64,000 nt of DNA from a virus. The stretch's first letter is position 1, and each line of letters opens with the position of its first letter. The DNA lies in IMG/VR virus record IMGVR_UViG_3300050509_000438, positions 14,416-78,415 of that record, one strand, 5' to 3'. The notes under the pieces are model-generated. The model was not told the origin of the DNA and made no database searches. It saw only the letters and a program-made list of their open reading frames with translations. The position numbers and the translations under genes were made by a program. Of the stretch, positions 12,877 to 29,731 are shown in pieces.

Positions 12877-15327
12877 CTACTTCTTCTTCCCTGCCGCCGT
12901 AGGCTTCGGCCGTGCCTTTATTTCCTCACGCTTCACCTGGTTCTTCTCGGCCTCAGTCTGCGCCTTTACCATCGTATCCATGTTCTTGCTGTCTACCTTC
13001 TGCTTCTCGGGGATATTCCGGATGGTCTGCTTGACGATCTCGGCCTGCTGATCACCCTGCGCGATGAAGCGCTTGGTCTGGTTATCCAGGGATTTGATCA
13101 TCCGGTCATCCATGCGCTTCTGCGCCTGCAAGCGTTCCTGTATCTGGCCGTTCAGGATCGCGAGTTCCTTATCGAGTTGAGCCTGGGCCTGCATAACCGC
13201 CATCTCGCCCTCGATCTTGAGTTGTGCTGACTGCTGATTGCCTTCGAGTTGCATCTGGTGGTTGCGCTCAAGCTGAGCCTGCATCTTACGCTCGAACTGC
13301 TTCTGTTTGACCCCCAGCATTTGCCGGGCCTGTTTGAGGTTGTCGATCTCCCGGACGTAAGCACTATCGGCCAGGGATATCCCGCCGGGGAGACCATTTA
13401 CGCCAGCCTGTATGGCTACTGATACATCCGCGTAGAACGATGCCCACTCTTGTTCTGTAGGCTGCCGTGTCAGGAACAGCCCATATTCGCAGTACGCGAT
13501 GTCCGGAGCCACATTGTAGTACCCGGAGTTGACCTTGCCTAATGCCGGGATGAAGCCTTCGATCGTGTGCCCATCAGCCTTGGACTGCTGCGCCAAGAGC
13601 AATAACTGGTGGCTGCAGCGCTTGTACAGGTACTCATGGGCATTATACAGATACTCCATATCGAAGTCCGAGGTCATCTGGCTGAGCTGCGCATTACGTA
13701 CGGCGAGCCGGTCCGGGATCTCCGAAGACTCGATCGCCGAGGTTCCCGTCATCTGCTCAAGCATGTTGATAGCCAGCGTGAGCATGTTCATGTAGTCGGC
13801 CATCACAAGGCCGCCAGAGGTCACTCCCATAGCATCGCCTATCTTCTGATCGTACTTGTTGGTCGCGCCACGCTTGATGAGGATCTGCTTCTTTAGGAAC
13901 AGTTTCATCACATCGAGCGGCGTCCAAACCTTTCCGCCGTGGCCGATAGCCACATCTTCAAGCTGATTGAAGTCAATCTCCAGGATGCCCATGTAGCCCT
14001 TGGCCAATACCTCCTTGATCTTGTTCCAGGCCACGTTCACCATGAACAGCGGCTCGATCATCTGGGAAGCGAAGCTCACAGTACGGCCTTCTTTGAAGTT
14101 AGTGGCGAAGGTTTTGATCGGCAGGCTGGAGTTCACAAGGTTGGTCCGGGGGTACTTCTTGCGGCCGTAGCCATACACACAATTGCTGTCCACCACCCAG
14201 GTGCCGCCATAAATCGAGGTATAGTCGTTCTTGATCAGGGAGCGCTCACCGGTATCGTATAGATGCGCAACTTCCTTTGGAGGAGTGTAGTTGTAGCTCT
14301 TTTCAATAAATATTTCCCCATCGTTGAGGTTCTTCTGTTTGACGAACCGGCGGTTATCTTCAGACCGGAAGTAGAACTTCATCACGGGGATGTACCCCAG
14401 GCCGTCGTAGTTCTCCAGGCGTTTGTAGTCGACAAAGTAGGAATTGTTGGGGGTGGTGCTGGAGTGAGCGCGGACGATCTCCATCTGTTCATCCAGGCTA
14501 AGCTCATCGCGGGTTTCCTTGATAAACTGGCTTACGGTAATAAAATCGAAGAATCCGGCATACTCCTGCTCCTCAAAGTCGTCGTTATCCACATAGGATC
14601 CGATCCAGAACTTCGGGTTGATCCGTTCTGATCGCGGCACGCCATTGCAATCCAGGTAACAGTGCAGGTGCCCGCGGCCGATCACAGTCAGGTCCCAGTC
14701 CACCTCACGCATCTTCTGGTTGAAGTTGTTGATCTCCTGGATTAGTTTGATGGTCAGCTCCGCCTCGATCTCCTTTTTGATCTTGGGGTTGACCATAATA
14801 TCGTACTCCATCTCATCAGGATACTGCGGCAGAGAGTCGACATCGAGTTCCGGAAATAGCTCTTTTGGGTCAAAACCCATACTGGTAACCCATTCTTTGA
14901 GCCGGTAGAAGGCATCGAGGGCTGCTGCGTAATCGGCTTTTTCGTCGACCGACACGATGTCGATCGCGTTCACACCAATGTCAAAGTGGTTCTTTTGGAT
15001 CTTGGCGACGGCGCGGTTGACGTACTTTGGCGCCAGGTTTAGAACCTGGATGTCGAGGAAGGCCAGTGCGTTGCTGCCGTCGTTGAGTGGACTGTTGGCA
15101 TCGAGGTACCCGAAGAGCTTCCTGATTCCGTCTACTGACTGGCGACCCTGGGCGAGTTCAACCAACGAGTCGAACTCCGAGGTACCGTAGAAGAAGGTCG
15201 AGCCATAGCGATTGCTGCTGAAGTACATCGCGCGTGCATAGCTCAAGCCATACGCTGGCAACTCCTTGGTTTTCGGATCAACAAATTCACTTGGAAAGTA
15301 GCAGTGTCCGTCGGGCAAACCTACCAT
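12877..15327 (-). CDS. Portal protein candidate
   Basis: 816-aa ORF, the first large gene after the terminase. Q/E/K-rich coiled-coil C-terminal tail. Call is based on size and position. Confidence 0.55.
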   Translation of the reverse strand: MVGLPDGHCYFPSEFVDPKTKELPAYGLSYARAMYFSSNRYGSTFFYGTSEFDSLVELAQGRQSVDGIRKLFGYLDANSPLNDGSNALAFLDIQVLNLAPKYVNRAVAKIQKNHFDIGVNAIDIVSVDEKADYAAALDAFYRLKEWVTSMGFDPKELFPELDVDSLPQYPDEMEYDIMVNPKIKKEIEAELTIKLIQEINNFNQKMREVDWDLTVIGRGHLHCYLDCNGVPRSERINPKFWIGSYVDNDDFEEQEYAGFFDFITVSQFIKETRDELSLDEQMEIVRAHSSTTPNNSYFVDYKRLENYDGLGYIPVMKFYFRSEDNRRFVKQKNLNDGEIFIEKSYNYTPPKEVAHLYDTGERSLIKNDYTSIYGGTWVVDSNCVYGYGRKKYPRTNLVNSSLPIKTFATNFKEGRTVSFASQMIEPLFMVNVAWNKIKEVLAKGYMGILEIDFNQLEDVAIGHGGKVWTPLDVMKLFLKKQILIKRGATNKYDQKIGDAMGVTSGGLVMADYMNMLTLAINMLEQMTGTSAIESSEIPDRLAVRNAQLSQMTSDFDMEYLYNAHEYLYKRCSHQLLLLAQQSKADGHTIEGFIPALGKVNSGYYNVAPDIAYCEYGLFLTRQPTEQEWASFYADVSVAIQAGVNGLPGGISLADSAYVREIDNLKQARQMLGVKQKQFERKMQAQLERNHQMQLEGNQQSAQLKIEGEMAVMQAQAQLDKELAILNGQIQERLQAQKRMDDRMIKSLDNQTKRFIAQGDQQAEIVKQTIRNIPEKQKVDSKNMDTMVKAQTEAEKNQVKREEIKARPKPTAAGKKK

Positions 15328-26883: not shown

Positions 26884-27243
26884 TCATCCTACACTCCTCG
26901 CTATCCTCGCATATCTCTCCTCATGGTTGCGTCCATGAACCAAGACAACTCCTTGTCCATTCAGGTCGCCGCTCTTCAGTGTCTCCACCTCCTTGTAGGT
27001 GATCACCTTGATAATATCACCATCTATTCTGGTGATGATCACGCGCACTCCATGCCGCAGCATTAGAATGTCGTGCTTGTTCAGTCCAACCGGACTCTCA
27101 ACCCGTAATGTAAGGTCGTAATGATACAGCTTTGGCTTCTCTTTGTCGAGCCTGCCGAATCGCTTCCATACACTCTGCCAGAAGGTAAGCTTGGGAGTGA
27201 GTGGGTAAGCCCGCGTGATGATGGAGGAGGTGATCGTGATCAT
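26884..27243 (-). CDS. Hypothetical protein
   Basis: 119-aa ORF that overlaps the upstream gene end by 4 nt. Confidence 0.45.
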   Translation of the reverse strand: MITITSSIITRAYPLTPKLTFWQSVWKRFGRLDKEKPKLYHYDLTLRVESPVGLNKHDILMLRHGVRVIITRIDGDIIKVITYKEVETLKSGDLNGQGVVLVHGRNHEERYARIARSVG

Positions 27244-28466
27244 TTGCGTATGATTACTTTTGAGTCTTCAAATACATCCGTACCGTCGATTTCCGCATCG
27301 CACTTGGATAAAAATAAATTGATCCAGTACTGGATAGCGTCGATGTATTCCGGACGACCTTGTGCATCGACCACAGGCTTCTTGCTCTTATCTCGCTTCT
27401 GGATGCCAGGAAAATCAGGATGAGACATGCAGTGATAGATGATTGTCGCGAGTGCTTTTGGTACCTTCTTAGGATCATTGAACTTGAGCACATACTTCAC
27501 TGGACCTGTCTCCATGCCGGGAACTTGCGTTGCAGCCTGCTCCGCAAATGAATTGCTCATCTTATCGAGTGATGCTTGCGTCTCGATCTCAAGTTGTTGT
27601 TTCTTATTCTGCTCCGCAATCTCAGCCTCTCTGCGTGCCGCTTCCTGCTGTGCCTTGCGTTTCTGCTCAAGCTCAAGCTTCTCCAGTGCCTCTTTGTCGT
27701 CGGCAAGTTTCTTCCGCTCGAGCATCTCCTGCTTCAGGTCGGGTATCTTTGCGCGCCATGCGTTGATGATCGGGGTGCATTGCTCCATGACAACAGTGTT
27801 CCATTTGTCGAATGATTCCTGTTCAATAAGATCCTTGTACCATGCAGCCATCGCTTCATCTCGTTCATACTTACTGGGTAAGAAGCATGCTTCCCAGTCC
27901 TCTGGCTTGAGCTTAGGCTTCATCTTCTTGTAGTCCTCGGCACGCTTGTCGAAGTCATCAGGTGTCGACGCCGCGAAATACTCAGCCGATCCGGTCTCCG
28001 CCTTCCTGACCTTTTCCGTAACCAGATTATTGAGCGCCTTCAGGATACCGGTCTTCAGGTCTACCAGGTAGTTCTCACGTTCGCGCTTTCTGGCAGCCTC
28101 GGCCTCAATCGCTTTTTTCTTATCAAGTTCGCGCTGCTTATAGGCAGCAAGAAGACCGCGAAGGCGGTTGTACTCATTGTCCTTCTTGGACTTGTAGTCG
28201 AATGGGGAGATCAGCTCTCGAGCTTGATCAAGGATGGACTCTACCGGCTCGGCAAGCTTTCGATACAGCGGGTAGCTGACATCGTCGTAGGTGATCTTGA
28301 GGCGCGCACAGAGTGTCTCTACCTCAGAGTACTCATCTTCGCTCTCCACTTGCGTTACCGCTCGCGTAACAGCCAGTGCTTTGTCGTGGCTGCTGCGCAA
28401 CTTTGGGATGATAGTCTTGAGGTCCTCGATATTGAGTTGAGGAAGGCTGTTGGTTTCTTCGGTCAT
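27240..28466 (-). CDS. Coiled-coil hypothetical protein (recombination-module neighbour)
   Basis: 408-aa ORF with long E/K/A/Q-rich helical stretches. Confidence 0.55.
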   Translation of the reverse strand: MTEETNSLPQLNIEDLKTIIPKLRSSHDKALAVTRAVTQVESEDEYSEVETLCARLKITYDDVSYPLYRKLAEPVESILDQARELISPFDYKSKKDNEYNRLRGLLAAYKQRELDKKKAIEAEAARKRERENYLVDLKTGILKALNNLVTEKVRKAETGSAEYFAASTPDDFDKRAEDYKKMKPKLKPEDWEACFLPSKYERDEAMAAWYKDLIEQESFDKWNTVVMEQCTPIINAWRAKIPDLKQEMLERKKLADDKEALEKLELEQKRKAQQEAARREAEIAEQNKKQQLEIETQASLDKMSNSFAEQAATQVPGMETGPVKYVLKFNDPKKVPKALATIIYHCMSHPDFPGIQKRDKSKKPVVDAQGRPEYIDAIQYWINLFLSKCDAEIDGTDVFEDSKVIIRK

Positions 28467-28548
28467 GCTATATAAGTTCAGTTTTCATCTTGTCACATCC
28501 ACGTTGTCGTCCATAAAGTCTTGCTTTAAAAAACCTCTTTGGTTTATG

Positions 28549-28705
28549 AAATAGTAGAAGGATTCGAACCTTCAATCCCGATTCCTTTATTGCTCAGTCG
28601 GGAAATCCACCTTATCAAGTCATGAGCAAAAGGCCTCACGCAGTCAACGCTTCGGCACTCATATAGACCATTTGTGGAGGCGTATACCAATTCCGCCATA
28701 CTATT
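28549..28705 (-). ncRNA. tRNA-like RNA gene with oversized anticodon/variable region (157 nt)
   Basis: Minus strand has acceptor AATAGTA/TACTATT, D-arm GCG-AAUUGGUAU-CGC with GG, and T-arm GAAGG-TTCGAAT-CCTTC. A TCCAC/GTGGA stem encloses 63 nt where a 7-nt anticodon loop is expected. There is also a TCCCGA/TCGGGA arm. A small hairpin + T-run follows at 28527-28545. The 311-nt gap contains no ORF. Confidence 0.5.
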
Positions 28706-28716
28706 TACCATGAGGT

Positions 28717-28752
28717 GAACGGCTTCCCCCTCACGAGTCGCCGTTCCGTGAG
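28717..28752. other. Interleaved inverted repeats (H-type pseudoknot potential) 5-prime of the tRNA-like gene
   Basis: GAACGGC (28717-23) pairs with GCCGTTC (28740-46), interleaved with CTCACG (28730-35) pairing with CGTGAG (28747-52). Confidence 0.4.
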
Positions 28753-28777
28753 CACCCGCCTGGTGCCCGACTCTGAG

Positions 28778-29731
28778 TTATGTAAAAGGAACCTGATCGT
28801 CCTTTTTTGTTTTCTTCTTGCCGCCGGTCACCTCCGGTTCATATACCTCGCCGGTCCGCTCGTTGACATCAGCGCGGAACTCGGCTGTCTCACCTTGCGC
28901 CACCAGCGTCGGGTCAGCTACCTCCTCCTGCTGCGCCGGCAGATCAATGGTCTTCTGTTCTTCTTCATCCGGAGCCTCATACTGCTTATACAGGATCACT
29001 GTATCCGGCTGCTTGTACTCCACCTTGAACACATAGTTGATCACGCTCTTCTTAGCCGCCTCGCCGTAGTGCTGCTGCCAGAGCATGCCGCCTTCCTTCA
29101 TCTGGCTTTTGGATCTTCTGATTTTGAGTTCCTCCAGTGTCAGCATGTAATCGCTTGACTTGCCATCAGCCCAGTCTACCGTAACGTACACCGCCATCAC
29201 GGTCTCTTCGCTGGGCCTTGGTACCGGGAATGACATCTCGTGCTTTGTGACGAGTTTGAGTTTTGGGTTGTATGAAAACTGATCTTTATTGAAGACCAGC
29301 ACGGGGTCGTTGACACGCTTGATGGTTGTCATGCGCTCGAGCATCTCTTTTTTTGCAAATGGATCGGGATCAACCTTCATCATCTGCTTCCAGCTACCGT
29401 CCTTCTGCTTAACTCCTTGCGGACGCAGATACAGCTTCTCCGGCGAGACACCATAGGAACCGACCTTGACGAAGGCGGCAAAAATAGAGAAGGGATCACA
29501 TTGCATGAGCTCCGGGTTGGCATTCACCTTCTCCATGAAGGCGAACACATCGCGCTCATATTTCGATGCACCATCTTCGCGCGTGGTGACAGCCTGGTAG
29601 TTCTGGATGTAGCGGTTCTTGATCGCGTCGATCGCCAGAAGGTCTTTTACGTTCTTGGCGGCTGAAATCTGCTGCTCAAGAGCCTTGATCGGATTTGTTT
29701 TCTGTATTTGAGTTTGGTCTGCCATTGTCAT
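28778..29731 (-). CDS. recT: RecT-family single-strand annealing protein
   Basis: 317-aa ORF whose central region (CDPFSIFAAFVKVGSYGVSPEKLYLRP... and VNDPVLVFNKDQFSY) matches the RecT layout. An exonuclease candidate lies in the same operon. The tail ends in KKDDQVPFT. Confidence 0.65.
   Translation of the reverse strand: MTMADQTQIQKTNPIKALEQQISAAKNVKDLLAIDAIKNRYIQNYQAVTTREDGASKYERDVFAFMEKVNANPELMQCDPFSIFAAFVKVGSYGVSPEKLYLRPQGVKQKDGSWKQMMKVDPDPFAKKEMLERMTTIKRVNDPVLVFNKDQFSYNPKLKLVTKHEMSFPVPRPSEETVMAVYVTVDWADGKSSDYMLTLEELKIRRSKSQMKEGGMLWQQHYGEAAKKSVINYVFKVEYKQPDTVILYKQYEAPDEEEQKTIDLPAQQEEVADPTLVAQGETAEFRADVNERTGEVYEPEVTGGKKKTKKDDQVPFT

Follow-up and report, generated by a model that had tools for sequence, protein, structure and literature searches.

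Two small RNAs, RNA1 of phage T5 and rnaC of phage T4, have been known for decades. The T5 gene rna1 (NC_005859, 30501-30644) bears the label 'tRNA-like stable RNA with unknown functions', and our literature search found no paper on it. T4 rnaC, also called species 1 RNA (NC_000866, 70908-71046), is annotated as a stable RNA whose function is unknown. In the 'tRNA scaffold' of Ponchon and Dardel, a structured RNA is reportedly placed at the anticodon loop, and the chimera is said to be processed and stabilised like a tRNA. Finally, the tRNA genes of Lak megaphages, which infect Prevotella, contain introns that have been called 'enigmatic' (Devoto et al. 2019, PMC6784885).

The DNA analysed here, referred to as the window, is a stretch of 64,000 nucleotides (positions 14,416 to 78,415) of the IMG/VR virus record IMGVR_UViG_3300050509_000438. 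The record is complete at 78.4 kb, with direct terminal repeats, and its portal protein is 21-23% identical to the portals of Cellulophaga and Flavobacterium podoviruses, so that the host is probably a member of the Bacteroidota. All window features described below lie on the minus strand. Directly after a recT gene there is a tRNA-shaped gene (28549-28705) of 156 nt plus the discriminator U73. We lean towards the view that this element is a genuine gene and that its product is a tRNA-shaped, non-decoding RNA of the T5 RNA1 kind, derived from a leucine tRNA, trimmed as tRNAs are and acting as a mimic or scaffold.

The upstream neighbour (28778-29731, 317 aa), named as RecT in an earlier note on this DNA, is indeed assigned to the RecT-like PHROG 148, and its homologues carry Pfam PF03837. 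The downstream neighbour (27240-28466) encodes a conserved 408-aa protein that is present in all relatives and returned no Pfam, PHROG, PDB or structure match. It has a weak protein-atlas lead to DUF1351, which we take to be a family of phage recombination modules. The idea that it might be an RNA ligase was dropped, given the missing family or structure match and its occurrence in relatives that have no RNA gene. The 311-nt gap between the two neighbours (28467-28777) does follow RecT as the earlier note had it, but it is not free of open reading frames: an ATG-started ORF of 55 aa (28544-28711) spans the tRNA-like gene, and gene callers may therefore annotate a hypothetical protein here. The small hairpin and T run that had been noticed just downstream are present (28528-28544), but the stem, AACC/GGTT, has only 4 bp and was not called by the terminator scan; it could act as a weak terminator.

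The element retains those parts of a tRNA that make up the L-shape. All seven pairs form between the acceptor strands AATAGTA (28699-28705) and TACTATT (28550-28556), giving the 7-bp stem expected of an RF00005 tRNA. U8 precedes a leucine-type D arm, GCG-GAATTGGTATA-CGC (28680-28696), which has a 3-bp stem, the loop GAAUUGGUAUA and the canonical A14 and G18-G19. The T arm, GAAGG-TTCGAAT-CCTTC (28557-28573), is canonical, carries the GTTCRANYC loop pattern and matches the Rfam tRNA model. The departures from a tRNA lie elsewhere. A canonical tRNA would have here a 5-bp stem and a 7-nt loop in which position 33 is U and position 37 a purine; in the element the 5-bp stem TCCAC/GTGGA (28674-28678 and 28606-28610) encloses an insert of 63 nt (28611-28673). 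The variable arm is enlarged to 28 nt (28576-28603), with the 6-bp stem TCCCGA/TCGGGA and a 16-nt loop. No CCA is encoded at the 3' end, and TCATAA comes after the acceptor stem. The 157-nt cloverleaf described earlier, with its D and T arms, 63-nt insert, extra arm and lack of CCA, is thus found as reported, and none of its five stems contains a mismatch.

An unconstrained minimum free energy (MFE) fold recovers the entire cloverleaf at -46.8 kcal/mol (z = -2.3), with 4 of 200 shuffled sequences folding as well. It also bears out the suggestion that the insert can form a long irregular hairpin, which takes the shape of a rod built from the pairings GGTC/GACT, ATGAGTG/TGCTCAT and GCC/GGC and an apical hairpin. 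In the 78-kb genome the element is the sole candidate to combine seven acceptor pairs out of seven with a T arm. With this rod in place of an anticodon loop, the element is almost certainly unable to read codons.

Standard annotation tools pass over the gene. ARAGORN found no tRNA in the window under default settings and calls the element only in its intron mode; it detected no other tRNA in the phage genome. At gathering scores, Rfam gave no match in the window. In the Rfam check that the earlier note had proposed, relaxed thresholds let only the T arm match the tRNA model, as a fragment scoring 14.4 bits where the cut-off is 29, and no intron or ribozyme family appeared. Default tRNA finders and Rfam miss genes of this type. 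A tmRNA was rejected, since the tmRNA mode of ARAGORN finds nothing genome-wide and the Rfam gathering scan holds no tmRNA match. Between the element and the phage's own genome there is no antisense complementarity of 12 nt or more.

The origin of the element can be read from its D-arm side. Positions 5-26 match a tRNA-Leu annotated in Enterococcus phage ZJGS2 at 22 of 22 nucleotides, and the D-arm region is 95% identical to cyanophage tRNA-Leu genes. Judged by the first of these matches and by that of the T arm to the Rfam model, tRNA ancestry is beyond chance, and the D-arm identity to phage and cyanophage genes shows that the body of the element descends from a leucine tRNA. The acceptor end has a different character, being A/U-rich with A1-U72 and U73. 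In E. coli the main leucine identity element is A73, and leucyl-tRNA synthetase ignores the anticodon. A1-U72 combined with U73 is atypical for tRNAs and, by the E. coli rules, argues against charging by leucyl-tRNA synthetase.

Homologues of the element itself were not found, either by blastn against GenBank phages or by searching IMG/VR for its exact T-arm/acceptor pattern. The locus can nonetheless be followed through RecT, homologues of which, 91% to 40% identical, occur in metagenome assemblies. Twelve distinct related loci were fetched in this way; one IMG/VR search and one metagenome search based on RecT were empty, and a second IMG/VR search yielded one distant relative. In 10 of the 12 distinct related phages, one or two tRNA-derived genes, first found by a T-loop motif and homologous position, stand directly after recT. 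The other two (L006 and L062) have a terminator only, so the gene is dispensable. A 7-nt anticodon loop is missing from every tRNA-like gene at the related loci, and with default settings ARAGORN reports no tRNA in 11 of the 12 loci. The Rfam tRNA model reaches its cut-off at two of them only, each time with an insertion of 39-40 nt in the anticodon region.

These genes come in several forms, none of which resembles the 63-nt insert of the window. Five (L002, L008b, L012a, L013, L015) combine a Ser/Tyr-like D loop with a long rod; in L009, which is grouped with them, the anticodon arm is just a 5-bp stem closed by a GAAA tetraloop. In L007, L008a and L012b, and more loosely in L003, a conserved structured insert of 33-40 nt is present. 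L011 is of leucine type: its stem of 7 bp closes a loop of 6 nt, and its extra arm is very long. L010 and L063 are divergent. A distant RecT-encoding viral contig has a 98-nt class II tRNA-like gene 1.7 kb upstream of recT (L036, 733-830). The D arm of this gene is of leucine type, its 7-nt loop reads UGUUGAU and so has G at position 33, and its extra arm is long and rich in A/U.

The flanks are more constant than the genes. In most relatives the tRNA-like gene is preceded by a conserved two-hairpin leader and followed by a trailer that is likewise conserved and contains a strong terminator. The leader of the window runs from the recT stop codon to the element (28706-28777), forms hairpins at 28750-28768 and 28717-28746, and represents another leader type. 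Its sequence agrees at about 85% with the leader ahead of the second gene in L012 (4292-4359), and both hairpins are kept, yet the genes behind these two leaders are entirely different. The closest relatives, L008 and L002 (RecT 91% and 87% identical, respectively), carry other gene forms. One leader type before different genes, together with other forms in the closest relatives, shows that the locus retains a tRNA-shaped gene of one kind or another and that the particular gene is swapped. As sequence patterns the flanks find little elsewhere: the leader gave nothing in IMG/VR and chance matches only in metagenomes, and the relatives' trailer gave chance matches only in IMG/VR.

Two features of these flanks deserve mention in their own right. 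The first leader hairpin, H1, is found in L002-L015 some 90 nt ahead of the respective tRNA-like gene, and in the window at 28750-28768. Its loop is conserved as AGGGCGGA in leader type 1 and as AGGCG in type 2, its stem co-varies (GACCC/GGGTC, GCCC/GGGC, GCC/GGC), and it is a candidate site for protein binding or processing. In L012, L013 and L014, a conserved, hairpin-rich stretch of about 190 nt (L012, 3934-4120; L013, 3499-3685) separates the recT stop codon from the first leader. It has no Rfam match above chance and may be a further non-coding RNA.

The family allows the tRNA shape to be assessed by covariation, which the earlier note had proposed as a check, and the acceptor and T stems do co-vary strongly. 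In an alignment of 11 family genes, 98.5% of cells in these two stems are paired and 11 of the 12 pairs, including all seven acceptor pairs, show compensatory changes; sliding the partner by 1-3 columns lowers pairing to 43-56%, and shuffles never reach the observed level. Several members were recognised by stem pairing, which makes the 98.5% figure partly circular and hence inflated. Two contrasts are independent of this selection. Firstly, between L008a and L012b the acceptor stem, the D stem, the stem at the anticodon position and the T stem all differ by compensatory changes, whereas every loop and the 33-nt insert core are identical. Secondly, A18 in the D loop (L002, L015 and L009) always occurs with G55 in the T loop, whereas all nine G18 genes have U55. 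Positions 18 and 55 touch in the elbow of tRNA, and their covariation indicates that the elbow, and with it the L-shape itself, seems to be under selection in this family. The rod of the window is a separate matter, because the GenBank phage, IMG/VR and metagenome searches found no homologue of its 63-nt insert, so that it draws no support from covariation.

We are now able to propose how such a gene might work. It would be transcribed together with recT, through the conserved two-hairpin leader; co-transcription is suggested by a sigma-70-type promoter scan, which called nothing on the gene's strand and does not cover Bacteroidota-type promoters. RNase P would cut the 5' end, and host tRNA enzymes would trim the 3' end and add CCA, so that the RNA is probably trimmed as tRNAs are, with the tRNA body stabilising the product. 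Lacking an anticodon loop, it would take no part in decoding. Instead it could be a tRNA mimic, a decoy or sponge that occupies a protein recognising the acceptor or elbow in the conflict between phage and host, or else a natural tRNA scaffold that presents variable rods. A mimic or scaffold role is probable on this reasoning; any binding partner named for the mimic would be purely conjectural. Of the earlier suggestion of a tRNA-derived regulatory RNA or decoy, a functional, non-decoding tRNA-derived RNA is the part that we favour, while for the exact role we can only infer a decoy, a regulator or a scaffold.

Several other readings must be weighed against this proposal. One is that the tRNA shape acts in cis and does no more than attract RNase P, and perhaps RNase Z, for cleavage of the recT transcript. 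Cleavage would leave the leader hairpins as a protective 3' end, and the excised RNA would have no role of its own. The placement of the element directly after recT on the same strand, with no sigma-70-type promoter called, fits such a signal, as do the conserved leader ahead of interchangeable genes and the finding that only the acceptor and T parts are common across the family. Cutting alone would not, however, need perfectly paired rods and extra arms, which the relatives keep by compensation or strict identity. The D-loop/T-loop covariation points instead to selection on the full L-shape, and T5 RNA1 and T4 rnaC are annotated as stable RNAs. We regard a purely cis-acting signal as unlikely.

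We think it equally improbable that the element is a functionless tRNA pseudogene, decaying or recently captured, left by recombination at a variable locus. As an exact sequence the element is an orphan, it sits at a hotspot where cassettes and small ORFs come and go, L006 and L062 have nothing there, and the A/U-rich acceptor stem with U73 could be taken for decay. Against this stand five stems without a mismatch, a conserved leader, and intact tRNA-like genes with compensatory changes at the same place in relatives. For these reasons the degenerate tRNA considered in the earlier note is disfavoured.

The earlier note had also raised a tRNA interrupted by a short, unusual intron, comparable to those of Lak phages, from which splicing would give a working tRNA. 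Phage tRNA introns have been published for megaphages that infect Bacteroidota (PMC6784885), and ARAGORN, run with intron models as had been proposed, does return a 'Gly(ccc)' tRNA with a 70-nt intron. That solution, however, needs a mismatched anticodon stem. When the TCCAC/GTGGA stem is kept, hand enumeration gives eight possible 7-nt loops, each made of the first a nucleotides of AAAUGGU and the last 7-a of UGAUAAG, and position 33 is always G or A. As no excision that keeps the stem yields a 7-nt loop with U33, the reading is disfavoured. Nor does a less constrained approach converge on one solution, for 1700 virtual excisions produced 507 ARAGORN tRNA calls with 46 mutually inconsistent anticodon labels, and the one call inspected again had a mismatched anticodon stem. 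Furthermore, related loci hold no intron-less allele, unlike in Lak phages, and no Rfam intron or ribozyme family matches. A splicing rule not yet described and a non-canonical loop would both be required, and we give this reading little chance.

The relatives L007, L008a and L012b speak in favour of an intron, in that removal of their insert would leave the loop A-U-UUA-A-C. These genes (L007, 4059-4167; L008, 2648-2753; L012, 4360-4465) share an insert design comprising P2 GUGMGG/CC.., UGUC, a hairpin of 5 bp whose loop is GUAC or GCGC, and UAAUCC. A single strand, AUUUAAC, follows the insert. The 7-nt loop left by excision would contain U33 and A37, and its anticodon would be UUA, reading the stop codon UAA, with the register uncertain in L007. 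These three genes could be intron-bearing ochre suppressors.

That the stretch encodes a 55-aa protein is very improbable indeed: an ATG-started frame does span the element, but it has no PHROG match and is absent in relatives, whose sequences there are unrelated. Open frames as short as 55 codons are no rarity in random sequence, and the tRNA features fully explain this stretch.

The favoured reading of the element, a non-decoding RNA derived from a leucine tRNA, can be set against a wider class of viral genes. IMG/VR was scanned for a leucine-type D loop followed 82-112 nt on by a T loop, which gave at least 115 matches (L066-L180 among those listed). Default ARAGORN places ordinary tRNA genes, mostly tRNA-Leu and another tRNA, across the span of 38 of the 115 matches listed. 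Paired acceptor and T stems in the right place occur in 71 of these 115, corresponding to 61 distinct sequences of 129-159 nt, two of which are artefacts of adjacent tRNAs. There are thus at least 59 distinct leucine-type look-alikes of 129-159 nt, and default ARAGORN calls none of them. Among those listed, one is a homologue of T5 RNA1, and in four sub-families the middle region has a conserved structure supported by between one and four compensatory pairs. The discriminator position is A in 50 of the 61 distinct sequences from the matches listed; the element and T5 RNA1 both have U73. No RecT of this subfamily was found near any of the 115 matches listed, and ordinary tRNAs lie within 1 kb at about half of the listed loci. 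The recT neighbourhood therefore appears to be a feature of the clade rather than of the class, and a general link between the class and recT was dropped.

The notion that palindromic apical loops serve as protein operators was abandoned, as most loops are not palindromes. In L122, CUU...AAAA surrounds a 50-nt hairpin, and some look-alikes, this one included, could be tRNA-Leu(UAA) genes with a mini-intron after U34.

A broader proposal, which we offer tentatively and consider unlikely as a whole, is that many phage lineages carry a frequent but neglected class of anticodon-less RNAs derived from leucine tRNA, with T5 RNA1 as the founder and the element as a member. They would be made and trimmed like tRNAs, act as decoys or sponges, evolve their rods fast and be swapped as cassettes between phages. 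Given A73 in 50 of the 61 listed sequences, most of them could still be substrates of leucyl-tRNA synthetase. If this were true, their targets would be host immune enzymes directed at tRNA, or tRNA-dependent transferases.

We return finally to the described systems. The Lak introns resemble the insert of the element in being short, in sitting in the anticodon region and in belonging to phages of Bacteroidota. A Lak gene, however, has a clear tRNA type and anticodon once its insert is removed, and intron-less alleles exist; neither is true of the element. The design matches that of the engineered tRNA scaffold. The scaffold is a laboratory construct, and the element would be a natural use of the same principle. 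T4 rnaC shares the small size, a terminal stem, a long rod, a second long hairpin and a canonical T arm (CCGGG-UUCGAAU-CCCGG). It differs in having no recognisable leucine-type D arm, in lying within a tRNA cluster and in showing no sequence similarity to the element.

The closest known RNA is T5 RNA1. The two share the leucine type of D arm (CCGGAATTGGTAGACGG in T5 RNA1, GCGGAATTGGTATACGC in the element) and an identical T stem, GAAGG/CCTTC (the T5 arm is GAAGG-UUCAACU-CCUUC). In each, the stem that takes the place of the anticodon stem closes an extended, irregular hairpin, which measures about 50 nt in T5 RNA1 and 63 nt in the element, and a long extra-arm hairpin and, in our parse, a discriminator U are also shared. 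Only the D and T arms align, whereas the rods and extra arms are unrelated, and the similarity may stem from independent descent from tRNA-Leu. T5 RNA1 lies inside the tRNA gene cluster of a T5-like coliphage and is annotated as accumulating stably; the element stands by itself after recT in a phage without tRNA genes. What is new is a conserved locus next to recT at which cassettes are swapped, and how large the leucine-type class is. The design of T5 RNA1 is thus present also in a phage that is unrelated and uncultured and probably infects Bacteroidota, and the comparative data set of co-varying stems, conserved leaders and a mostly kept A73 could make the role of such RNAs testable.
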